From positions 1,888,001 through 1,952,000 of the forward strand of contig CAXXKJ010000002.1 in assembly GCA_963675295.2 (NCBI GenBank): a stretch of DNA of 64,000 nt, read 5' to 3'. Shown here piece after piece: positions 25,474 to 43,088 of the stretch. How positions within the stretch are numbered: the first letter of the stretch is position 1; every line of letters begins with the position of its first letter. The position numbers and the translations under genes are program-made. A model generated the notes under the pieces. The model was given only the letters and a program-made list of their open reading frames with translations, had not been told where the DNA came from and searched no databases. This stretch comes from a bacterium. GTDB taxonomy: Bacteria; Electryoneota; Electryoneia; Electryoneales; Electryoneaceae.

Positions 25474-25905
25474 GAGTTCGGTTTTTTGGTGGCTGGACGA
25501 ACAGGAATCCGCAGGGGTGATGAGGATGCAGCAACGCGTCCTCATTTCTTTTTTGAAGGAATTTGACAAATGTTTGCACGGTTGGCAGGATGGAATCAGC
25601 TTATATTTCGCGTTTTACTGAATTGTGAAGGGAGTTTTCCGTCTCGACTGAGGTTGCCAAAAGAGAGCCGGAATCCGCTCCGGTTCCACTGGACTTTTTT
25701 GGGAATCTGGGTGATACTAAGTGCAATTGTCACACTCTCCGAACTACCTTCCTGATCGCTCCGGGATCATGGCGAGGGTTGTCCGTGTCCTGAGTGTCAA
25801 GTTTCAACAGAAAACAAACGGTTTCCGCGCCGAACTGGCTCTGACTGTCGGAAGAAGCCAGACAGATTGGCGGAACTTATGATTTGCTTCGGCGAAGGAG
25901 GATGC

Positions 25906-28900
25906 ATGATTCGCAGGCGTAGGGTTGCTGTGGGGACACTGTTCCTGCTCCTGGCGGTGGTAACGTGGTCATTTGCGCTGTCACCTGTTGAGCAGACATC
26001 AGTCGAGTGGGAAGGGGTGCGTACGGATGCGTCCGGCGTGCAGGCCCAGCTCAGGCTGCAGTCATTTGATATCGCGACGGATGACCTTGGGGAGTACATC
26101 GAGATTCCCGGGGCGTTTGCCACTGATTCGCCGATTCCGTTGGCGACAACCATGATCAACGTGCCGAACGGGGTGGGGATTGAAGCCTCCGTCACCGCGT
26201 CGGATTTCGTTTCCACCGGCATTTACGCTCCTGAGCTTGCCGGGCAGATGGAACATGTGATTGTCGGTGAACCCATTGTGTTCCGCGGCATTCGATTGTT
26301 CCCGGTGTCGGTTTCGGCGGCGCGGGTTGCGGACGATGGCGAGATTTTCATCGCCAACGTGTCCGAACTGAACGTGGAGTACACCGGCGAGGACAGCCGA
26401 GCTGAAGGTTCGCTGGAAGAGATCCGGCTGTCGGCGGAAGTGGAACGCTATGTCCGTAACCTGGTGCTGAACATTGATGAGATCAACATCAACGTTGTCG
26501 CGCCGGTTGGCCGTCTGCTGGTCGTGATTGAGAACAACGCGACGCTGCTCGCGCGCATGGAACCCTATGTCCAATGGAAGCGCGAACAGGGGTACAAGGT
26601 GGTTGTCGATCATCCGACGAGCACCACGTCGTACTCCGCGATTTATTCGCTGATCAACAGCCACTATACGAACGGTGATGCACTGCCGTTGGATTATGTG
26701 CTGCTGGTCGGTGACCACAACGGCAGCGTCGACATGGTCGCGTACAACGCGTTGACGGACCACTACTACAGCCAGCTCGAGGGCAACGACATTCTCGCCG
26801 ACCTGGCGATTGGACGTTTCTCCGTGCAGGACGGCAACATCGAGCTCGGCCGTGTGGTCAACAAGCTGCTGGCGTACGAGCGTGATGTGGACATGACCGA
26901 TCCGTCGTGGCTGTCCAACGTGGTGTTGACCGCGGGTTCGGGCTCGGGTACGAGCACCATCATCACCAACCGTTCGATCAAGGAGATGTTTAGCCAGAAC
27001 GGTGTCGCATCCGACACGTTGTGGTGGACGATGGGTGGCGACATCCCGCAGTTCATCGTGGATGAAGTCAATGATGGCGCGCACTTCGTGAATTTCCGCG
27101 GCTACTATGGCTTTGCCGGCTGGAGTGCCTCCGACCTCGCCAACATGAACAACGGTACCCACCTGCCGGTTGTTATCACAATTACCTGTGGCACCGGCGA
27201 CTTCGCGACGACGACGGAAGAGTATACAGAAGGTTTCTTCCGAGCGGGTTCCGGCTACAACGATTTCTGGGGTGGTATCGCCAGTGTGGGTACGGCCACC
27301 ACTTCAACGCACACCCGTTTCAACAATATCGTCGACAGCGGACTGTTTGAGGCTGTGACGTTGCGAAACATCCGATCTCTCGGCTGGGCGTTGGTAAACG
27401 GCAAGCTGCGGTTGTACCAGGCCTACGTCAACACCGGCGACAACAGCAACATCGACGATTTCTCCTACTGGAACAACCTGATCGGTGACCCGGCGCTCCG
27501 TGTCTGGGTCGGCATTCCCGACGAAATTGACGTCACCCATGACGCCAGCATCTCATACGGTCAGAACTACGTTGATGTTACTGTTCACCACCCCGGTGAG
27601 TGGCCGGAACTGATCTGGGCCACCCTGGCCGATGACGAACAGGTCATCGCGACTCATCGCATTGACGAGTCCGGCGTGGTTCGCCTCAGCTTCGATCCGG
27701 CGGATGTGTCCAGTTCGATGACGCTGACCGTGGTCGGCGACAACGTTGTGCCGTACCAGGCCGACATCCCGGTCAACAACGTCGCGCAGTATGTCTATGT
27801 CGCGTCGCACATCGTCAATGATGGCGCGGGCGATGACGACCTTGCCAACCCGGGTGAGACGGTTTACCTGACGTTGACCATGCGCAACGGTGGTACGCAG
27901 ACTGTCGGTTCGCAGACCGCGACAGTCACCACGGACAGCCCGTACCTCTCCGTCGTCGGTGGGAACACGTTCAACGTGCCGTCGCTGACGTCCGGTGCGC
28001 AGACGACGATCGCCAACGCGGTGCAGGTGGCGGTGGATCCGTTCACTCCGGATGGAGCGTTGCCGGAATTGACCGTGACCCTGGGCGCGAACCAGACCAG
28101 TGATGTCCGGCTCGACATCGCCGGATTCACCACGTCGGTTGGCGTGAACGAACTCAGCTACGGCGGCAACGGTCAGCTCGATCCAAACGAAACAACGACA
28201 CTCGTTTACCCGTTCACCAACGTTGGCAGCACAACGGCGTCCGGCTTGACCGGCACGCTGACGACGGCGAACGAACATGTCACCATCGTTGATGGTACCG
28301 CCAATTATCCCTCGGCATCGCCGGGTTCGACGGTGTCCAACAGTTCCGATCCGTTCAGTGTGACGATCAGTTCGGATGCGTGGATGGGTGAACCGATCCT
28401 GTTCACACTGACCATTACCGACGATGACGGCGGGATGGATTCGACGGTCTACCGGGCGTGGGTTGGTGATCCGGCGAACAACGGTCTCACCGGGCCGGAC
28501 GAGTATGGCTACTGGGCTGTTGACAACATGGACGGCGGCTTCGGCTCGATTCCGATTTACAGCTGGACGGATATCGGCATCACCGCGAACCGTCTCAACA
28601 TCAACGACACCGCCAACGAAGATGACGACGCTCAGGTAGTTAACCTGCCGTTCGGGTTCGTCTATTACGGAGAAGTCTTCAACCAGTTGACGGTGACCAG
28701 CAACGGGAACGCCGCCTTCGGCGCGTACCCGACGCTGTACACCTTCCGTAACTGGAACATTCCGAACCCGCTCGGTCCGCCGGCGATGCTGTCGCCGAAC
28801 TGGGATGACCAGTTGACCAGCGGTGGCGGTGTGTATGCCTATCATGACATTTCCGCCGGCCGGTTTATCGTGCAATGGGATGTCGTTGCACGCTACACCA

Positions 28901-31713
28901 ACCAGCCGCAATCGTTCCAGCTGGTGCTGTTTGATCCGGGCCTGTGGCCGACTCATACCGGCAACGGCATGATCCAGTTCCAGTACGAGACGTTCTCGCA
29001 AGAAGCTGGCTACAGCTACGACAACGACTACTGCACCGTGGGTATCGAAAGCCCCGACCAGGCTGACGGTGTGCAATATCTGTACTGGACGAGCTACAGC
29101 GACAACGCGTCGCCTATTTCCAGTGGCACCGCGATCCTGTTCACCGACGACCTTTCCGGCGGCGGCACGTCCAACCCGGAAGCGGTGATTGGGCCGTCCA
29201 GCTTCAACGTTCCGTGGCAGGGCACACCGGTCACTGAACAGGTCAGCATTGAAAACCAGGGTGACGGGACGCTCGTCTGGAGCATCACGGAAGTCGGCAA
29301 TGAGTTCAGCGGTGCGGCACGCCGCCGTGAGCTGGGCTTGCCGGATGTTCCGCCGGTAACGAACCAGACACAGGAACTGGTTGACCTCAAGACCTATCGC
29401 CGTGACAAGGCGGCGGAATACCAGCGCGAACAGGAACACCATGATGTGTCTGAACTCGAGGGCACCGGCGGGCCGGTGATCGACGACTTCGGCGGTCCGG
29501 ACCTGTTTGGCTACTCGTGGATCGACTCGGATGAACCGGATGGTCCGGATTACGCGTGGCATGCGCAGTATGGCACCGCGGTGAGCCAATCGGAATTCAG
29601 CGATTACGATGACGGCTATTCCAACGCCAAGTCGCTCGGCTTCTCATTCGAGTACTACGGTGTGCAGTACAACAGTCTGTACATCAACACGAACGGTTTT
29701 GTCACCTTCCAGGGCGGCCAGTCCGGGTCGGGCACCTACAGCAACGAAGCGTTGCCGAGTACGGATGCGCCACGCGACGGTTCGCCGTGCACCATGCTCG
29801 CGGGCTTCTGGGACGATCTGAACCCGGAAGATGGCGGGACGATTTACTACTACACCAACAACAGCGACCTCGCGGTCATCACGTGGTACGACGTTCCAGG
29901 GTACGGTGGAAGCGGCCTGTACCGTTTCCAGATCATGTTGTACGCGGACGGCACAATCGTCTACCAGTACAACAACATGGGGACGCAGGACATTACCAGC
30001 GCCACCATCGGCATCCAGAATGCCAACGGTACCATCGGCCTGACCACGGTGAACAACTCGACATACGTCGGCAACAATCTCGCGGTCAAGTATTACACGG
30101 CGACCAAGTGGTTCGAGGCGCTTGACACGATGGGCCTGCTTGGCGAGGGTCAATCGACCACCGCGGACATCCAGTTTGATGGTTCCGACCTGCCGGACGG
30201 CGTCTACACTGGTTCGTTGATCGTAGCGACCAATGATGTCGACAATCCGTCGGTGGAAATTCCTGTCCAGATGTTCGTCGGGATCCAGCCGCCAGTGGTT
30301 GATGACATTCCGAACCAGAGCATCGACCCGGGCCAGAACTTCGCAACCATCAACCTCGACAACTACGTCGATGATCCGAACTATCCGGATAACCAGATTT
30401 CGTGGACGGCGACCGGTCAGTCGGAACTGACCGTCAGCATCGTCAACCGTGTCGCGACGATCACACCGCCAAGCCCGAGCTGGATTGGGTCGGAAACGGT
30501 CACCTTCACCGCGACGAACCCGCTGAACGCGTCCGACAGCGATGACGCGACGTTCACCGTCGGCGCCGGCTTCATCAGTGTCGACCTGACCGGCGGACGA
30601 TACGAGCTGGTCAGCTTCCCGGTGACGCCGCCGTCATTGGCGGTGGAAGACGTGTTCGACAGCATCAACAACCTGGTTGTTGTGTTCAACGATGACGGCG
30701 ATTACTACCAGCCGTCGGGCAGCAACACAATCGGCAATATTGATGTCAGCGAAGGTTACCGCGTCTTCACGAATACGACGCAGACCTTCACGTTCGACGG
30801 TTCGCCGCTGGATCTGAACACGGATTACACCGTGACCGGCAACCAGTGGAACTGGATCGGGCATCCGTTCGTCGAGGAAATGTCGATCACGACGGCCATG
30901 GGCGATATCACCAACCACATCAACATCGTGGTCGATGATGAAGGCGAGATCTACTGGCCGCAACTCGGCATCAACACCATCGGCAACCTGGTTCCGGGCA
31001 ACGGCTACCAGATGTGGACCGAGCAGACGACCACGTTCAACTACACCACCACGGTCGCGCCTCCGCGCGGTCTGGCGGCGGATCAGCAGCAGCTGATCAC
31101 CGAGCTTCCGGCGGGTCCGGTTGCGGTGGAACCGACCGGGACACCGTACCTGGTTCACGTTTCGCTGCACGAGAATCTGCGTGACAAGGATGTCGACGTG
31201 ATCGAGGTGCTGGACGGTTCGCAGGTGGTCGGGTCGGGACGAATCATCGCGGATCGTGACGAAGCGGTGATTGTGACGTGGCAGGGTGACGCTGACCGTG
31301 ATGTCGCCGGCTACACGGCGGGTTCGTCGTTGAAGCTGCGTGTGCTGGACGAATCGGGCGCGACGCTCGAGACGAAGAACGTTGGCGACAAGTCGTTCTT
31401 CGGTGACGGTTCGCACGCGGATGTCGTGGTTGCGTCGGCGGCGCTGCCGGAACACTTCGAGGTCAGTGCGGGGTATCCGAACCCGTTCAACCCGACGATC
31501 CAGGTGCCGTTCGCGCTGCCGGACGCCGGCAAGGTGACGTTCTCGGTGTACAACGTGCTCGGCCAGCAGGTGTTCGCGGAATCGAAGAAGCTGGACGCCG
31601 GCCGTCACACGTACCTGTACCGTCCGGGCAACGGCGTCGCCAGCGGCGTCTACTTCCTGCAGGTGCAGTACGGTGCTGAATTGAACCGTCAGAAGATCGT
31701 GCTGATGAAGTAA
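25906..31713 (+). CDS. Large C25 (gingipain-like) peptidase polyprotein with Ig-like and nidogen-like repeats and CTD
   Basis: Propeptide, WKREQGY, YVLLVGD, DHYYSQLEGND, IGRFS, ITCGTG, NLIGDP; two GPDxxGY repeats; GYPNPFN...KIVLMK. Confidence 0.9.
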   Translation: MIRRRRVAVGTLFLLLAVVTWSFALSPVEQTSVEWEGVRTDASGVQAQLRLQSFDIATDDLGEYIEIPGAFATDSPIPLATTMINVPNGVGIEASVTASDFVSTGIYAPELAGQMEHVIVGEPIVFRGIRLFPVSVSAARVADDGEIFIANVSELNVEYTGEDSRAEGSLEEIRLSAEVERYVRNLVLNIDEININVVAPVGRLLVVIENNATLLARMEPYVQWKREQGYKVVVDHPTSTTSYSAIYSLINSHYTNGDALPLDYVLLVGDHNGSVDMVAYNALTDHYYSQLEGNDILADLAIGRFSVQDGNIELGRVVNKLLAYERDVDMTDPSWLSNVVLTAGSGSGTSTIITNRSIKEMFSQNGVASDTLWWTMGGDIPQFIVDEVNDGAHFVNFRGYYGFAGWSASDLANMNNGTHLPVVITITCGTGDFATTTEEYTEGFFRAGSGYNDFWGGIASVGTATTSTHTRFNNIVDSGLFEAVTLRNIRSLGWALVNGKLRLYQAYVNTGDNSNIDDFSYWNNLIGDPALRVWVGIPDEIDVTHDASISYGQNYVDVTVHHPGEWPELIWATLADDEQVIATHRIDESGVVRLSFDPADVSSSMTLTVVGDNVVPYQADIPVNNVAQYVYVASHIVNDGAGDDDLANPGETVYLTLTMRNGGTQTVGSQTATVTTDSPYLSVVGGNTFNVPSLTSGAQTTIANAVQVAVDPFTPDGALPELTVTLGANQTSDVRLDIAGFTTSVGVNELSYGGNGQLDPNETTTLVYPFTNVGSTTASGLTGTLTTANEHVTIVDGTANYPSASPGSTVSNSSDPFSVTISSDAWMGEPILFTLTITDDDGGMDSTVYRAWVGDPANNGLTGPDEYGYWAVDNMDGGFGSIPIYSWTDIGITANRLNINDTANEDDDAQVVNLPFGFVYYGEVFNQLTVTSNGNAAFGAYPTLYTFRNWNIPNPLGPPAMLSPNWDDQLTSGGGVYAYHDISAGRFIVQWDVVARYTNQPQSFQLVLFDPGLWPTHTGNGMIQFQYETFSQEAGYSYDNDYCTVGIESPDQADGVQYLYWTSYSDNASPISSGTAILFTDDLSGGGTSNPEAVIGPSSFNVPWQGTPVTEQVSIENQGDGTLVWSITEVGNEFSGAARRRELGLPDVPPVTNQTQELVDLKTYRRDKAAEYQREQEHHDVSELEGTGGPVIDDFGGPDLFGYSWIDSDEPDGPDYAWHAQYGTAVSQSEFSDYDDGYSNAKSLGFSFEYYGVQYNSLYINTNGFVTFQGGQSGSGTYSNEALPSTDAPRDGSPCTMLAGFWDDLNPEDGGTIYYYTNNSDLAVITWYDVPGYGGSGLYRFQIMLYADGTIVYQYNNMGTQDITSATIGIQNANGTIGLTTVNNSTYVGNNLAVKYYTATKWFEALDTMGLLGEGQSTTADIQFDGSDLPDGVYTGSLIVATNDVDNPSVEIPVQMFVGIQPPVVDDIPNQSIDPGQNFATINLDNYVDDPNYPDNQISWTATGQSELTVSIVNRVATITPPSPSWIGSETVTFTATNPLNASDSDDATFTVGAGFISVDLTGGRYELVSFPVTPPSLAVEDVFDSINNLVVVFNDDGDYYQPSGSNTIGNIDVSEGYRVFTNTTQTFTFDGSPLDLNTDYTVTGNQWNWIGHPFVEEMSITTAMGDITNHINIVVDDEGEIYWPQLGINTIGNLVPGNGYQMWTEQTTTFNYTTTVAPPRGLAADQQQLITELPAGPVAVEPTGTPYLVHVSLHENLRDKDVDVIEVLDGSQVVGSGRIIADRDEAVIVTWQGDADRDVAGYTAGSSLKLRVLDESGATLETKNVGDKSFFGDGSHADVVVASAALPEHFEVSAGYPNPFNPTIQVPFALPDAGKVTFSVYNVLGQQVFAESKKLDAGRHTYLYRPGNGVASGVYFLQVQYGAELNRQKIVLMK

Positions 31714-37193: not shown

Positions 37194-37308
37194 AGGCACT
37201 TGTTAGTCGCAACAGAAATTGAAATCGATCCTTGTTTCGCATGCATTCTCGAATCCCGGTGCCTACATTGAACCGAATACGTATCGTCTTCCACGTTGGG
37301 AGTATGAA

Positions 37309-38874
37309 ATGAAGGTTCACTATTGGCAACGAGTAGTCGGCTATTCTCTCCTTCTCGTTGTTCTTACCAACCTGTCTACACCTCTTCAAGCCTACCATTT
37401 GATCCTTTCTGCTGATGTAATGGATCATCAAACACGTGTGCTACTGGTCGACATGGACGATGACTACGATCTTGACGTGGTTCAATCGAGCGATCAAGGC
37501 ACCAATCGTCTGGCGTGGATCGAACAGATTGACCCATTCACCTGGGAACCGCACATCATCGCGACCGTGGACAGCGTCGACGGGATGGAGGTGTTTGGCG
37601 TTTCGGACCTGGATTCGGATGGTGATCAGGATTTGCTGGTTGTACGCGAAGTCGATGATGTTTGGGAGTATGCTTCGTACGAACAGCAGGCTGATACCTG
37701 GATTGCCCACTCGATCCATCCATCAGTAAGCGCCCGGGCACCCGCGCCTTATGTGATGTTCGACTATGACAGTGATGGGGATGACGACTTCGTGTTTGTC
37801 GACTACTCGAACGACCGAGATATTTACTATATGCGAAATGAAGGATCTCACGTATGGACACCGATCTTCGTCCAATCCAATGATTTGGGCCTCTACGAAA
37901 ATAGTGAAGATATCTGGCATTGTCTCCCCGGTGATTATGATGGTGACGGTCTGATTGACCTTGTGATTGCAACCGGGAATGGATCAAGTGTTTCCTGGTA
38001 TGGATGTGGCATTCATCTTAGATATCATGATGGTAGTATTGTTACAGTATACCAGGATACTGGAGCTGATGACTATTGCACTGCAAAAGAGGTATTAGAC
38101 TTTAACAATGATGGTTTATTAGATATTTTGTTTGAGGAAAGACAGAATATCTTGGATTATACACATTTGGCTACGCAAACTACTTCTGGAAACTTTACAA
38201 CGAATGTGTTGTGTGGTTTAGGTACAGATGTTCCGTTCTGGCGCGAATACGCAACCTTGGACTATAATTGTGACGGGCATTTGGATTTTTTTATAGATGA
38301 TATTGATCATCCAGATTACATCCATGGCGTACTCTATTATAATCAGGATCTTACTTTTCACTATGAAGTTGTTGGTATTCCAGTTGAAGAAGTTATATCA
38401 ATTGGCGATATTGATGGTGATGGTGCACCTGATTTTACCCATTCATACGGAGGACTAAGTTGGCAGGAGAACCTTATTGAAGTCGGGTATGCCAGCCTCG
38501 AACTTATACCGGTTTCTGGATCTATTGCTCCCGGTGGAACGGTTCTTTACGGTGCAACGATCTTCCACGCAGCACCAACACCCGTCACAGCCAACATTTC
38601 CGCTCGTGCACGAGGGCAACAGGGTGGCCAGCTACCGCTATTTAATGCCTCGATTCCGCTGATCCCCAGTCAGTCGATTGATTACAACGGTCTCACGTTG
38701 GATGTGCCAGCGTGGACCCAACCCGGCCAGTACCTCGTGACCATCAAACTGCACTACCAGGACACAACGGTAGCGGGTGGACAGATGGTGGTGACGGTAA
38801 CCGGCGAACCGTCTGAATCGCGGCCAGACGACTGGCGGGAGGATATGGCTACAGGTGCCCACGGTTGGGAGTAA
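37309..38874 (+). CDS. Secreted FG-GAP repeat protein with degenerate shared module, no CTD
   Basis: DxDxDGDxD repeats, signal-like N-terminus, LELIP..IAPGG..VPAWTQPGQY module, ends RPDDWREDMATGAHGWE. Confidence 0.75.
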   Translation: MKVHYWQRVVGYSLLLVVLTNLSTPLQAYHLILSADVMDHQTRVLLVDMDDDYDLDVVQSSDQGTNRLAWIEQIDPFTWEPHIIATVDSVDGMEVFGVSDLDSDGDQDLLVVREVDDVWEYASYEQQADTWIAHSIHPSVSARAPAPYVMFDYDSDGDDDFVFVDYSNDRDIYYMRNEGSHVWTPIFVQSNDLGLYENSEDIWHCLPGDYDGDGLIDLVIATGNGSSVSWYGCGIHLRYHDGSIVTVYQDTGADDYCTAKEVLDFNNDGLLDILFEERQNILDYTHLATQTTSGNFTTNVLCGLGTDVPFWREYATLDYNCDGHLDFFIDDIDHPDYIHGVLYYNQDLTFHYEVVGIPVEEVISIGDIDGDGAPDFTHSYGGLSWQENLIEVGYASLELIPVSGSIAPGGTVLYGATIFHAAPTPVTANISARARGQQGGQLPLFNASIPLIPSQSIDYNGLTLDVPAWTQPGQYLVTIKLHYQDTTVAGGQMVVTVTGEPSESRPDDWREDMATGAHGWE

Positions 38875-39014: not shown

Positions 39015-40409
39015 ATGCCACACCTGTTCGCACTACTGCTACCGTTGATGCTTGTCCAGCTCGGGATCGGGCTGCCGTTTTTTGGCGGCGGCAAGGACAA
39101 GGCGGAGGAGTACGAGCAGGAGCATTCGGCGTGGGTGTATCCGCCGTGGGAGCATACGTGGGGCGTGGTCCGGGCGACGGAAACCCACCTCGATTTCTTC
39201 ACGCTTGGCAAGGCAACCTTCCGCAATCCGCAGGGGTTGGCGGCGGTGCGTCTGACCGCGACGGACGATCCGGATTCCAAGGGCGATGACGACGAAGTCA
39301 CCGTCTATGGCGTCAATTCCGGCGAAAACGCGATCATCTACAACCGGTCGATGCGCAGCATCGGCCTTTTTGGCTACGATGACGAGACGCGTGATTTTCT
39401 CGACGAACCGTGGGATATCGCAGCCTTGCCGAACGGGCTGGTGTTTGTCACCGACAGCGGGCATCGCCGGGTGGTGAAGTTCCGCAATGTGGACGGTGAC
39501 CTCGTGTTCCAGTCCGAGTTCGGGCGGGATGGCCAGGGCGCGTTGGTGCTGCCACGCGGGATTGATGTCACCGAGGGCGGTCTGGTAATCGTCGCGGATG
39601 CCGGCGCGGATCGTGTGGTCCTGTTCGACACCAGCGGTGTGTTTGTCAAGGCGATCGGTGGGTTTGACCGTCCGGTCGGTCTCGCGGCGGTGGACAGCCT
39701 CGACAAGTACACCCGTCCCAAGCGCAATTACTTCGCGGTGACGGATAGCGGCGGGCAGCGTCTGCGGCGGGTCGATTTTAACGGTCACATCCTCGCGGAG
39801 AAGGACATCTCGTTCATCGAGGGTGAGCACGACACGTACGCCGGCCACATCGAGATCGATCTGTACCACAACATCGCGGCGACCGACAGCACGAACGACC
39901 GGCTGCTCAAGTTCGACGAGAACCTCGAGCTGCTCTCGGTCTGGGGAGAGACAGGGGAGGGGCGGACCCGGTTCCACAGCCCGACCGGCATCGCGATCTG
40001 GCGGCGGTTCGGGCAGACCTTCGTCGCGGAGGCGAAGGGCGCTCACTACCTCTGGGTCGGCACCGACATTTCGACCCCGCCTCGGCTGGCGTTTCCAGGA
40101 CCGGGCGAAATCCGTGTCGGGCTCGATCTGACCGAGCGCAGTCAGATCACGCTGGAGATCGTGGACGAGGACGGCGAGGTGTTGCGGACGCGGAACTCGT
40201 ATCGTGATCCGGGTTCACGCAGCGTGTTGTGGCGGTATGACCGGGCGACATTTGTCCGTCCTGAACCGGAGGGCAGGGTGCAGATTGAGCGGCCGGGACC
40301 GTTACCGGCGGGCGAGTACACGTTGCGTATCCGGTTGCGGGCGACGTATTCCAGCCGCAAGGCGTTCGAAAAGGTGATGGAAACCTCGGTGCAGCTGTCT
40401 GGCAGTTGA
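39015..40409 (+). CDS. NHL-repeat (6-bladed beta-propeller) protein with C-terminal Ig-like domain
   Basis: PWDIA, VTDSGHRRVVKF, PRGIDV, VADAGADRV, FHSPTGIA; LPAGEYTLRI. Confidence 0.75.
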   Translation: MPHLFALLLPLMLVQLGIGLPFFGGGKDKAEEYEQEHSAWVYPPWEHTWGVVRATETHLDFFTLGKATFRNPQGLAAVRLTATDDPDSKGDDDEVTVYGVNSGENAIIYNRSMRSIGLFGYDDETRDFLDEPWDIAALPNGLVFVTDSGHRRVVKFRNVDGDLVFQSEFGRDGQGALVLPRGIDVTEGGLVIVADAGADRVVLFDTSGVFVKAIGGFDRPVGLAAVDSLDKYTRPKRNYFAVTDSGGQRLRRVDFNGHILAEKDISFIEGEHDTYAGHIEIDLYHNIAATDSTNDRLLKFDENLELLSVWGETGEGRTRFHSPTGIAIWRRFGQTFVAEAKGAHYLWVGTDISTPPRLAFPGPGEIRVGLDLTERSQITLEIVDEDGEVLRTRNSYRDPGSRSVLWRYDRATFVRPEPEGRVQIERPGPLPAGEYTLRIRLRATYSSRKAFEKVMETSVQLSGS

Positions 40410-40578
40410 TCGTTGCAGGGTGAGGAGCATAAACGGCTCTCGGGCTCGCTTGCGGGTCCGAGTTTTTTTGTGATTTTTATGCTTTGAATTGGTACGGGGT
40501 GGAGTCTATGCGTATTTTTCACCCCGCGTCTCAAGGAAGAGACGTTTGGATTGATCACGTTGCTCAGTGGGGGCTGTA

Positions 40579-41340
40579 ATGAAGTTGGTGAAGACGGTTG
40601 GCCTGGTGGCATTGAGCTGCCTGATGTTTTCGATGACGGTATCCGCGCAGGTACACTTCAGCCCCGTGGAATCGACCGGTGTTCCTTACGCTATCGTGGT
40701 GCAGGAGGCGACGTGGAACGGTGGCGCATCGTTGGTCGCCGGTGACGAAATCGCTGTGTTTGATGGAAACACATGCGTTGGAGCTGCAGTCGTGAGCGGA
40801 TTCCCGGTGAATCTGACCGCGTGGGAACGTGACACCAACCTCAATCTGCCGGGATTCACGCCCGGGCACAAGATGACCTACAAGCTGTGGGACCAGTCGC
40901 AGAATGAAGAACAGCCTGCGCTGGCGCATTACGATACAGGCAATGCGCTGTTCGGCAGCGGATTTGCGTCTGCGGTAACGTTGAACAGTTCCGATTTCCC
41001 GGTGTTGCTGTCGATCTGGTCGAACGAGGCGACGATTCCATCGACCGGCGGAACGTTGACCTGGGGCGCTCAGTTGTGGTCGACTGTTGGCGTGACACGC
41101 ACAGGCCTGCGCTTCTGGACCACCCTGACTCGTCCAAGTGGGTTCGTCACGGGGACTCAGTTCCAGTATCCGTTCAACCTGGCGCCATTCATGAACATCG
41201 CCAACAGTACGTTGAATCAGAATATTGAAGCGAGTTGGCCGTCGGGCACCTGGACGATGAACGGGCACGTGGGCATCTATCCGAACGCTGTGATTGTCGA
41301 TCACTTCACGTTCGAAAAGCTCGCGGCAGATCCCGAATAA
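40579..41340 (+). CDS. Secreted two-module protein (module B + shared module A), no catalytic domain, no CTD
   Basis: Signal peptide; N-half resembles the C25 penultimate domain (VESTGVPY..GDEIAVFDG..CVG..AW..GFTPG); C-half is the shared module ending DHFTFEK. Confidence 0.75.
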   Translation: MKLVKTVGLVALSCLMFSMTVSAQVHFSPVESTGVPYAIVVQEATWNGGASLVAGDEIAVFDGNTCVGAAVVSGFPVNLTAWERDTNLNLPGFTPGHKMTYKLWDQSQNEEQPALAHYDTGNALFGSGFASAVTLNSSDFPVLLSIWSNEATIPSTGGTLTWGAQLWSTVGVTRTGLRFWTTLTRPSGFVTGTQFQYPFNLAPFMNIANSTLNQNIEASWPSGTWTMNGHVGIYPNAVIVDHFTFEKLAADPE

Positions 41341-41387: not shown

Positions 41388-41411
41388 ACCCCCGCAGGTG
41401 CGGGGGTTTTT
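41388..41411 (+). terminator. Intrinsic terminator
   Basis: acccccgca-gg-tgcgggggt followed by T tract. Confidence 0.7.
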
Positions 41412-41567
41412 GGTTTTATTGAGCTTGCTACCCGGGTTCGCTCTGAACCGGAGAAGAGCCTCGCTGAGAGATGTTGTGCCGATTATCACGTAACTTAGCG
41501 GGAATTTGCGTATATTGATCTCGCTTACAGCGACTGCTGACTTTTGAACTGATTTGCCGAGGATGCA

Positions 41568-43088
41568 ATGTCTGGCCGTGCGCCCGGTTGGTTCGGGCTT
41601 TTCCTCATCATTCTGCTGCCGTGTTCTGCTTTTTGCCAAAGCGGTCCGGCGAACCTCAACGCCGAGCTGTTGCTCGACGGTGAGGTGCAGCTCTCCTGGG
41701 ATCCGGCACCACCCCAGATTCTCGACTCGTATGACGGTCCCTTGGTGAACTACGATCTGCTTCCATCCAACACCTGGTACGTCGAAGACGGCTACCTCAA
41801 GGGCTTGGTTTCGGCGGGTTGGAAGTCGGCCTGCTACGGTGGCGAAGTCGTGGAAAACTTTACGGTTGCCACGACGATCCGGAATGTCAGCGGTGCAAGC
41901 AGCCGTGGGCTGTTGATTCGTGGGGACGGTCCCCGGGACAATGACTACAATGGCTATTGTTTCTATATCTCACTATCGTCCCAGAGTTTCGCCTTCTACA
42001 GTTATGAGGACGGGTATTACGACCTGCTGCTCGGTTGGACGCCGAGTGATCTGATCAACCTTGAACCGGGCGAGGAAAACTCGCTGGCGGTCACGGCGAA
42101 CGGCTCGAATTTCCTGCTGTATGTGAACAACAACTACGTCGGCACGGTCTCCGACAACGACTACAACCAGGGATACATCGGCCTCGTGTCGTCTGGCAGC
42201 AACGAAGTCTGGTATGACGAACTGGTGTGCTATTATGACCCGCCGATGAACAACGACGACCTGATCGAATATCGTGTTTTCCGTGATGGGCTGCAGGTCG
42301 GAACGACACTGGATTCAACGTATACAGACACGCTTCCGGCGCCGGGCGAGTACACGTATTCGGTCAACGCCGTCTTTGAACCCGGCGGTATTACCCCGTT
42401 GTCCAACGAGGCGTCGGTGGACTGGGAGCTTGTTACGTTGAGCCTGTTGCCGGAGAACACGACGATTCCGGCGACGGGTGGCTCGCTGCATTTCTCGGCT
42501 CACCTGGTCAACACGGTGAACCAGTCGTGGCCGACGGTTCGGTTCTGGACCAGTGTTACACCTGCGGGCGGCCAACCGGTCGGACCGTTGACCTCCCGTT
42601 ACATCAACATCCAGCCGTACATGGATTTGACCGTCACGAACATGCACCAGCCGGTTCCGTCCACAATTCCGGCCGGGGATTACCTGCTATCCGCGAATCT
42701 GGGCTACTATCCGGTCTCCCTCGTGTCGGATACTTTTGAATTCACCAAGCTTGAGGACGACAGCGTTGCCTACGGTGGATCGAATATCATCGTTAACGGT
42801 GCCGGGTCTGATCTTCTGTCTGTCAGCGACGTTGGTCTCAGCAGCTGGCCGAATCCGTCCAATGGCTTGTCAACGGTAAAGTTGAGCTTGCCGGAAACGG
42901 CACAGGTGACGGTCGAAGTCGTCAATGTGCCCGGACGCCGGGTAGCGTTGCTCGCCGGGGGAACCCTTTCCGCCGGCACACATCAGTTTGTCTTCGATGG
43001 GTCCAATCTGGCGACGGGTGTGTACTTTGTTCGCATGGTCAGTGACCAGTACGCGCTGCAAATCCAGAAGATCATGTTGTTGAAATGA
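41568..43088 (+). CDS. Secreted protein: split FN3 with inserted ConA/LamG-like (DUF1080-like) domain + shared module + CTD
   Basis: PANLNA..VQLSWDPAP / YRVFRDG..YTYSVNAV flank a segment with NSLAVTANG..LYVNN..GYIGL..VWYDEL; WPNPSN...KIMLLK. Confidence 0.75.
   Translation: MSGRAPGWFGLFLIILLPCSAFCQSGPANLNAELLLDGEVQLSWDPAPPQILDSYDGPLVNYDLLPSNTWYVEDGYLKGLVSAGWKSACYGGEVVENFTVATTIRNVSGASSRGLLIRGDGPRDNDYNGYCFYISLSSQSFAFYSYEDGYYDLLLGWTPSDLINLEPGEENSLAVTANGSNFLLYVNNNYVGTVSDNDYNQGYIGLVSSGSNEVWYDELVCYYDPPMNNDDLIEYRVFRDGLQVGTTLDSTYTDTLPAPGEYTYSVNAVFEPGGITPLSNEASVDWELVTLSLLPENTTIPATGGSLHFSAHLVNTVNQSWPTVRFWTSVTPAGGQPVGPLTSRYINIQPYMDLTVTNMHQPVPSTIPAGDYLLSANLGYYPVSLVSDTFEFTKLEDDSVAYGGSNIIVNGAGSDLLSVSDVGLSSWPNPSNGLSTVKLSLPETAQVTVEVVNVPGRRVALLAGGTLSAGTHQFVFDGSNLATGVYFVRMVSDQYALQIQKIMLLK

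Follow-up and report, generated by a model that had tools for sequence, protein, structure and literature searches.

What becomes of a protein that keeps the domain standing before a secretion tag and carries no tag itself? This question is raised by a gene at positions 40579 to 41340 (forward strand) of a 64,000-nucleotide stretch of contig CAXXKJ010000002.1 (assembly GCA_963675295.2, family Electryoneaceae), which we call the window. The gene encodes a small protein, here named the B-A protein, with a predicted signal peptide and two beta-sandwich modules, B and A. In most of the proteins of this genome that carry it, module A is followed by the C-terminal domain (CTD), the tag that marks type IX secretion system (T9SS) cargo. 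We found that the B-A protein arose by truncation from an ordinary small T9SS cargo, a surface protein of which it is the tagless derivative. Our preferred reading, to which we give a probability of about 0.5, is that this descendant of T9SS cargo is kept by selection and most likely works as a soluble, unanchored binder in the periplasm. Two side results concern the modules themselves: the unnamed family of module B and the homology of module A to the biofilm scaffold RbmA.

The missing C-terminal domain and its loss

The open frame that holds the gene spans 40567..41340 (+). The ATG at 40579, which gives a protein of 253 amino acids (aa), is at the position common to all orthologues, each opening MK..., and the stop codon is TAA (41338-41340). 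The gene and its borders are as follows (a slash marks a predicted cleavage site here and below).

40439..40472, + strand: terminator-like hairpin and T run, closing the upstream NHL-repeat gene (39015-40409)
40579..41340, + strand: coding sequence of the B-A protein, signal peptide + module B + module A, 253 aa
40579..40647, + strand: Sec signal peptide, aa 1-23, predicted signal-peptidase-I cut VSA/Q
40651..41004, + strand: module B, aa 25-142, seven-stranded beta-sandwich (model), unnamed repeat family
40996..41328, + strand: module A, aa 140-250, RbmA-like FnIII / Ig-like beta-sandwich, ending in an F.F.K motif
41388..41417, + strand: terminator-like hairpin and T run, 48 bases past the stop of the B-A gene

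The T9SS CTD is a domain of ~70-100 aa (TIGR04183 / PF18962). None was detected in the B-A protein by Pfam (E<=0.01), NCBIfam (E<=1) or a CTD profile, and the C-terminus lies 0-5 residues past module A. Having no CTD, the protein is not T9SS cargo by definition. The initial annotation, made from the sequence alone, had described the protein as ending without a CTD and being followed by a terminator; both observations hold, the downstream hairpin (41388-41407) having 8 pairs, 7 of them G-C, with a T run after it. No CTD-like frame was found in the 230-390 bases downstream of the gene in the window or in three syntenic loci (L004, L005, L006), which leaves no remnant of a tag, and a hairpin stands right after the stop in each of the four loci. 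The hairpin of the window recurs in L004, and different hairpins occupy the same place in L005 and L006. The upstream hairpin (40439-40462) has 10 pairs, 7 of them G-C, and is followed by TTTTTTT. Terminator-like hairpins on both sides suggest that the gene stands as its own unit.

The tagless form is conserved. The gene order C25, (BNR), UvrC, NHL, B-A, S8, S8, MAM is kept in L004, L005 and L006, and the B-A orthologues of these three syntenic genomes show 91%, 58% and 61% identity. Altogether, 5 distinct tagless orthologues (58-91% identity) were detected. We searched 16 genomes of the order and found full-length matches in 4/4 genomes of the genus (g1), in frames of 257-288 aa, which are too short for a CTD. 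One more full-length match was found in another genus (G010; 44% identity, 384-aa open frame). The G010 locus (L012) contains an NHL gene, a B-A-CTD gene of 367 aa and a LamG-like gene, identifying the B-A-CTD gene as the syntenic orthologue. It equals protein P0060 in the aligned part, and P0060 carries Por_Secre_tail (E=8.5e-8). The CTD is also kept by the paralogue C2:3204863-3205963 and by P0098.

With the paralogue as root, the maximum-likelihood tree places the 7 tagless rows together to one side of a branch, so that a single label change is enough. Since the syntenic G010 orthologue and the paralogue are both B-A-CTD, the tag was probably lost once, in the genus of the B-A protein; most likely the linker and the CTD were lost together, cleanly, in the genus ancestor.

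The ratio of non-synonymous to synonymous substitution rates (dN/dS) was 0.062 (dS 0.73) between the B-A gene and its 91%-identical orthologue in L004, and 0.061 and 0.064 for the neighbouring NHL and S8 genes. The comparison with L006 gave 0.09-0.10, with synonymous sites near saturation, and several distant pairs gave no dS estimate. These substitution patterns indicate that the gene is under purifying selection and is not decaying; low dN/dS and the tagless frames in 4/4 genomes of the genus suggest that the tagless form is kept by selection. The initial annotation had proposed to look for the CTD in related genomes and had anticipated that orthologues with a CTD would mark this copy as a truncated remnant. 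The search divided the related genomes, the CTD being absent in 4/4 of the genus and present in the sister genus (G010), so the truncation is real, but the copy is not a decaying remnant (dN/dS 0.062).

The signal peptide call is based on reading of the sequence, a crude regular expression, which the protein fits, and the alignment of orthologues. By eye, the N-terminus has the n-h-c pattern, with the n-region MKLVK, a hydrophobic core and then VSA/Q, and the [SF]A/Q cleavage pattern is kept in 5/5 aligned orthologues. The protein is therefore predicted to have the N-terminal Sec signal peptide that is expected of T9SS type A cargo. The mature form would have 230 aa, ~24.8 kDa, pI 4.6 and one Cys. 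No Pfam family (E<=0.01) and no NCBIfam family (E<=1) was detected on any part of the protein, and the AlphaFold2 model of the whole protein is confident and all beta (predicted local distance difference test, pLDDT, 89.6; predicted template modelling score, pTM, 0.77). The B-A protein is an enzyme-free, predicted Sec-exported protein of two binding-type beta-sandwiches; the earlier description of a real, conserved gene with B and A only and no enzyme domain is borne out.

Two other interpretations of the gene were rejected. The conserved Cys14 could suggest a lipoprotein; this Cys lies inside the hydrophobic core with a canonical AxA/Q site after it, and the residue at -1 to it is Thr in 3/5 orthologues. 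An antisense open reading frame (ORF) at 40564..41304 (246 aa) was taken for a high-GC artefact, homologues and dN/dS favouring the + frame.

The NHL-repeat gene (39015-40409, +) adjoins the B-A gene in 4 other loci (L004, L005, L006, L012). No CTD was detected in the NHL protein, and its last ~100 residues appear by eye to be a FlgD-Ig/CTD-type sandwich. The gene 3' of the B-A gene (41568-43088, +) encodes a LamG-like (3-keto-disaccharide-hydrolase-like) A-CTD protein in this genome (G000), L004 and G010, and is absent from L005 and L006. In G010, a gap of 26 bases separates the B-A-CTD gene from the LamG-like gene (L012 2618-3735).

Module A and RbmA, module B and its family

Both modules were identified by comparison with copies in other genes of the window.

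42423..42761, + strand: copy of module A in the next gene (41568-43088; LamG-like head, A, CTD)
31120..31449, + strand: copy of module B in the C25 protein, aa 1752-1861, directly before its CTD (aa 1870-1945)

The C-half of the B-A protein had been taken for a module shared with other proteins, and the comparison with the next gene (aa 105-251 vs aa 249-398; 70.9 bits, E=2e-18, pairwise) bears this out. Against the iterated family profile, the A domain scores i-E=4.2e-38 (independent E-value) over ORF residues 143-257, i.e., aa 139-253 of the ATG form, and the protein belongs to the module A family of the genome (305 ORFs); the B-A protein seeded this profile, which makes its own score partly circular, and the independent support is the pairwise match.

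We detected a relationship between module A and RbmA of Vibrio cholerae. A profile of 13 A copies (that of the B-A protein included) matched RbmA in the PDB (4kkp_A; E=2.6e-13, 53.4 bits); the match extends over both FnIII domains (i-E 4.1e-5 for one and 1.2e-4 for the other). The modelled aa 140-250 of the B-A protein superpose on RbmA FnIII-1 (4be5_A) with Z=12.9 and a root-mean-square deviation (rmsd) of 2.6 A over 104 residues. The next fold matches were other Ig-like, macroglobulin and CARDB-like domains (Z 10-12). With profile-level similarity and the fold both in common, module A is, as judged from sequence profiles, homologous to the RbmA FnIII domains beyond a mere common fold. The word 'scaffold', used in the initial annotation, gains indirect support from this homology.

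The Pfam model of this family, PF22021 (RbmA-like_FnIII), did not match the B-A protein at E<=0.01, and the protein is not over its gathering score (27 bits). In the whole genome, PF22021 finds 12 sites at E<=0.01, only one of them above the cut-off (27.9 bits); other A copies reach 21.8 and 16.8 bits. This suggests that module A is a divergent branch that the model mostly misses. The alignment of module A with the CTD profile (hhalign) runs end to end and is weak (P=0.0022, probability 5%), giving only a hint that module A could be a diverged CTD.

The N-half of the B-A protein was said to resemble the domain before the CTD of the window's C25 protein, and this similarity is real (aa 30-141 vs aa 1754-1861; BLASTP 33.9 bits, E=2e-5, 25% identity); in the iterated profile search of the genome ORFs, the C25 copy scores i-E=1.9e-27. 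By profile and by the motifs HFxPV, GDEIxxFDGxLCVG, AW, GFxxG, WD and FGxG, the B-A protein belongs to the module B family, the consensus of which is HFxPV..GDEIAxFDGxLCVGA..AWE..GFTPG..WD..FGxG. Seven ORFs of the genome carry 9 real copies, and the carriers include the C25 protein, an S8 protease, an 838-aa protein and the cluster C2:3198000-3212000. B and A are unrelated in profile comparison (probability 0.2%).

Module B belongs to a very large family. In a library of 1.84 billion proteins, the profile found 4492 (E<=1e-3), 2233 (E<=1e-10) and 426 (E<=1e-30) representatives of 50%-identity clusters; the profile (250 positions) also held A and signal-peptide columns, so the counts are upper bounds for B. 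The best-matching stretches of the 150 library hits listed fall in the B part. A B-only profile detected 546 copies in 156/156 proteins examined, with at least 2 copies in 148 of them. In the library search, a single protein held up to 15 copies, and protein lengths reached 7635 aa. In 76/156 proteins the first B starts <=70 aa from the N-terminus, and in 87/156 the last B is 80-140 aa away from the C-terminus. Por_Secre_tail is present in 14 of 20 sampled B representatives, and Ig repeats of the HYDIN/ASH/DUF1573 type in 7. Even at E<=10, Pfam matches nothing on B in any member of alignment A2, and there is no NCBIfam model either.

The B-only AlphaFold2 model is confident (pLDDT 93.2). In the fold search, the best VIA Z was 6.7 (a lipoxygenase PLAT-like domain), no chain reached Z>=8 and the best Foldseek E was 0.012; such weak matches are no proof of a new fold. 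Against PDB sequences, the mixed B-A profile found nothing at E<=10 and the clean B profile only 5n5p_A, a cellulosomal scaffoldin (E=0.39, not significant). The ESM Atlas returned unnamed clusters only (scores 0.91-0.92), and a word-index search with the B region at near lengths gave no further relatives by a method that needs shared 5-residue words.

Small tagged proteins with B at the front were found in several arrangements: B-CTD (P0007, 244 aa), B-B-CTD (P0006 and, in this genome, C2:3203269-3204471) and B-A-CTD (P0060, P0098 and the paralogue C2:3204863-3205963). These forms show that B is the head domain itself and not an accessory, and the term 'cargo-less' given to the B-A protein is in this respect misleading. 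Similarly, the proposal that the protein combines two pre-CTD module types is right for A, which precedes the CTD in 232 ORFs, and only partly right for B, a repeat that also opens many proteins (76/156). Like the B-A protein, P0007, P0006, P0060, P0098 and their in-genome counterparts have B straight after the same signal-peptide type (...A/Q(x)HFxPV) and no enzyme domain; unlike the B-A protein and its 5 distinct genus orthologues, they keep the Por_Secre_tail CTD.

The co-directional locus L001 (C2:3198000-3212000) encodes, in this order, a lipoprotein-like protein (HYDIN-type Ig + B), a TonB-dependent receptor, the B-B-CTD and B-A-CTD proteins and a 5'-nucleotidase that carries A and a CTD. 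The cluster resembles a locus for capture at the surface and uptake, built around module B, and this neighbourhood would fit a role of B in cell-surface binding. P0145 (437 aa) has two B copies with an FnIII-like stretch between them and a tail that by eye is dockerin-like and not a CTD; no Pfam family was found in it at E<=0.001.

Tagless proteins in the genome and the type IX setting

The genome has a real T9SS, with a true PorU sortase (C2:892737-895961; 708.7 bits vs a cut-off of 420) and 423 ORFs that carry a T9SS type-A-like CTD. The C25-family peptidase of the window (25867-31713, +; 1948 aa, NIDO-like domain + module B + CTD) was ruled out as PorU, scoring 33.4 bits against the same cut-off.

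The census of module A covered 18,794 six-frame ORFs of at least 70 aa from the 4.8-Mb genome (G000, comprising C1 and C2), taken from the longest possible start and searched with iterated profiles. Module A is carried by 305 ORFs. A CTD follows it in 232 of them (median gap 40 aa), leaving 73 A-bearing ORFs without a CTD, of which 48 end <=15 aa past A; the CTD profile was grown from one type-A seed, and divergent tags in ORFs other than the B-A gene could be missed. For 72/73 tagless ORFs, no CTD-like frame was found within 700 bases downstream, suggesting that they are not simple frameshifts. The sole tagless A-bearing ORF with such a frame (E=2.1e-12) is C2:4373364-4375001(+), the tagless state of which is likely a frameshift or an assembly error.

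Tagless and tagged proteins occur in the same head families, the tagless members making up 24/111 in the largest family, 20/49 in the next and 10/10 in another. The largest (111 paralogues) is probably the FG-GAP family, judged from its members in the window. A FastTree phylogeny of the 305 A domains implies at least 32 changes of the tag label, a rough figure, as domains of ~110 residues resolve poorly. By a crude pattern, the tagless A-bearing ORFs have ordinary signal peptides that are not of the lipoprotein type, and Gln follows the predicted cleavage site in 135/305 A-bearing ORFs, the B-A protein and all its orthologues included. A Gln after the cleavage site resembles the 'Q-rule' described for Bacteroidetes (PMC5837995).

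Four ORFs consist of a signal peptide and module A alone (130-158 aa) and are more minimal than the B-A protein: C2:3687292-3687684(-), C1:170654-171088(-), C2:2462052-2462486(-) and C1:171529-172005(-). A word-index search with the A profile found no stand-alone A proteins of 59-202 aa elsewhere, by a weak method that needs shared 5-residue words. The window gene at 37219-38874 (+) encodes an FG-GAP protein of 551 aa that has module A but lacks a CTD; it has no counterpart in the syntenic loci L004-L006 and appears to be an insertion specific to this genome.

Possible role of the B-A protein

The B-A protein descends from a small T9SS surface protein with the plan B-A-linker-CTD, and the genus ancestor most likely dropped the linker and the CTD. 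The present protein would be exported by Sec and cut by signal peptidase I. By analogy with known cargo, it would then have no usual T9SS route across the outer membrane and no surface anchoring. The CTD is reported to be required for the export of T9SS cargo (PMC11285876), and truncation of the CTD is described as leading to the accumulation of gingipains in the periplasm (PMC4804311). Taken together, these two reports suggest that the tagless protein is probably a soluble periplasmic binder, and the earlier proposal that it may stay periplasmic is reasonable. Module B would provide one binding site and module A a second, which may bind polysaccharide as RbmA FnIII-2 does; that domain is reported to bind exopolysaccharide directly (PMC5605196), and polysaccharide as the ligand of module A is a fair guess from that comparison.

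Several results weigh against the periplasmic reading or the single loss behind it. Support for the single-loss branch is weak (52/38), one change is recovered in 54% of 200 bootstrap trees, and the tree is rooted on a paralogue with a long branch. Export independent of the CTD is possible, as there are 4 secretin genes in the genome, and RbmA itself leaves by type II secretion (PMC5605196). Furthermore, with 73/305 A-bearing ORFs tagless, dozens of large propeller proteins trapped in the periplasm would be odd, and so large a class hints at another route or role for A-terminal proteins.

A serious though less probable alternative is that the B-A protein is an extracellular matrix or surface cross-linker similar to RbmA, leaving the cell by a route independent of the CTD (type II secretin, vesicles or lysis), and that its two sandwiches, perhaps as a dimer, link exopolysaccharide with cells or with surface proteins that carry A or B. 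The homology of A to both RbmA FnIII domains (E=2.6e-13; fold Z=12.9) speaks for it, as do the secretin genes and the occurrence of B in extracellular giants and, in P0145, beside the dockerin-like tail seen by eye. RbmA chains are also the best Foldseek matches of the whole B-A model (E=8e-8), but that superposition is loose (TM 0.38, rmsd 15 A). The Vibrio cholerae protein (biofilm scaffolding; PDB 4be5, 4kkp; PF22021) and the B-A protein (~25 kDa) agree in size and plan, both being small, Sec-exported and built of two tandem beta-sandwiches with no enzyme domain. However, module B is not FnIII-like (B vs A 0.2%; best fold match Z=6.7) and forms a separate unnamed family, the B-A protein descends from T9SS cargo whereas RbmA uses type II secretion, no exopolysaccharide or vps-like gene context lies around the gene within the window, and the export route is purely inferred. 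The working unit of RbmA comprises two tandem FnIII domains, an antiparallel dimer and exopolysaccharide binding; only the C-terminal domain of the B-A protein is FnIII-like. With one related domain only, the B-A protein is not an RbmA orthologue. A literature search for RbmA together with type IX secretion, judged by title, returned nothing relevant.

The initial annotation had favored a role within a modular complex, as bridging adaptor, chaperone or cap. In the adaptor or hitch-hiker role, the B-A protein, itself tagless, would attach to its CTD-bearing relatives (through A-A, B-B or A-CTD contacts) and be co-exported with them, or act as their chaperone or cap. Modules A and B do recur in CTD-bearing proteins of the same genome, and A can be aligned over its full length with the CTD profile, although weakly (P=0.0022, HH probability 5%). 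Strand swapping allows CTDs to dimerise, and heterodimer formation with other Ig-like domains was called 'conceivable' (PMC4804311). Against this, terminators isolate the gene, and it has no conserved partner gene, the LamG-like gene being missing from L005 and L006. Specific binding would be difficult among 305 A-bearing proteins, and the ancestral form carried its own CTD, hence was cargo rather than an accessory factor. We are not aware of a tagless partner being co-exported through T9SS, though no literature search was aimed at this point. The adaptor role is thus unsupported by the gene neighbourhood, and we consider it improbable.

It is similarly doubtful, on our estimate, that the A-terminal tagless proteins (72-73 ORFs) form a second working class of the T9SS surface proteome, with the B-A protein as the smallest two-domain case. 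Module A may in that event be a surface or matrix retention module, or a cryptic export module, docking on the organism's own polysaccharide or on CTD-bearing relatives by Ig strand exchange. If true, proteins lacking a CTD would still arrive at the surface and remain there, and this would be the first CTD-independent or hitch-hiking display linked to T9SS. A truncated remnant heading for loss is very improbable: the protein has lost a domain that its orthologue and paralogue still carry, but its frame is intact in 4/4 genomes of the genus and also in another 3 proteins from metagenomes, dN/dS is 0.06-0.10, like that of the neighbouring genes, and the protein ends cleanly at a domain boundary with its own terminator.

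Among known systems, the B-A protein would work most like RbmA (small, tandem sandwiches, no enzyme domain) and like the mature, tag-free end of a T9SS cargo. A tandem of similar layout is known from Porphyromonas gingivalis (RgpB, Kgp, PPAD), in which an Ig-like domain (IgSF) stands directly before the CTD, with a flexible linker. Module A has the same placement in 232 ORFs of this genome, and in the CTD-bearing orthologue and paralogue of the B-A protein. In contrast to the P. gingivalis tandem, the CTD is lost in the B-A protein, A is a member of the RbmA-like FnIII family, not of the gingipain IgSF family, and A is the last domain in the 48 tagless ORFs that end <=15 aa past it. The IgSF domain of RgpB has been proposed to be a spacer (PMC4804311).

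The loss of the tag from the B-A protein is part of a genome-wide pattern (73/305 tagless, at least 32 label changes). The orthologue pair with and without a CTD, both under selection, provides a clean natural experiment on tag loss. Module B, a very large family (up to 4492 50%-identity clusters) that lacks a model in Pfam and NCBIfam and has no clear solved fold, would be well worth a family entry and a structure determination. Module A ties the Vibrio biofilm scaffold RbmA by sequence to the pre-tag domain of hundreds of T9SS proteins, here in an uncultured lineage related to Bacteroidota. This homology suggests that the 'stalk' before the CTD may bind polysaccharide and not merely act as a spacer.

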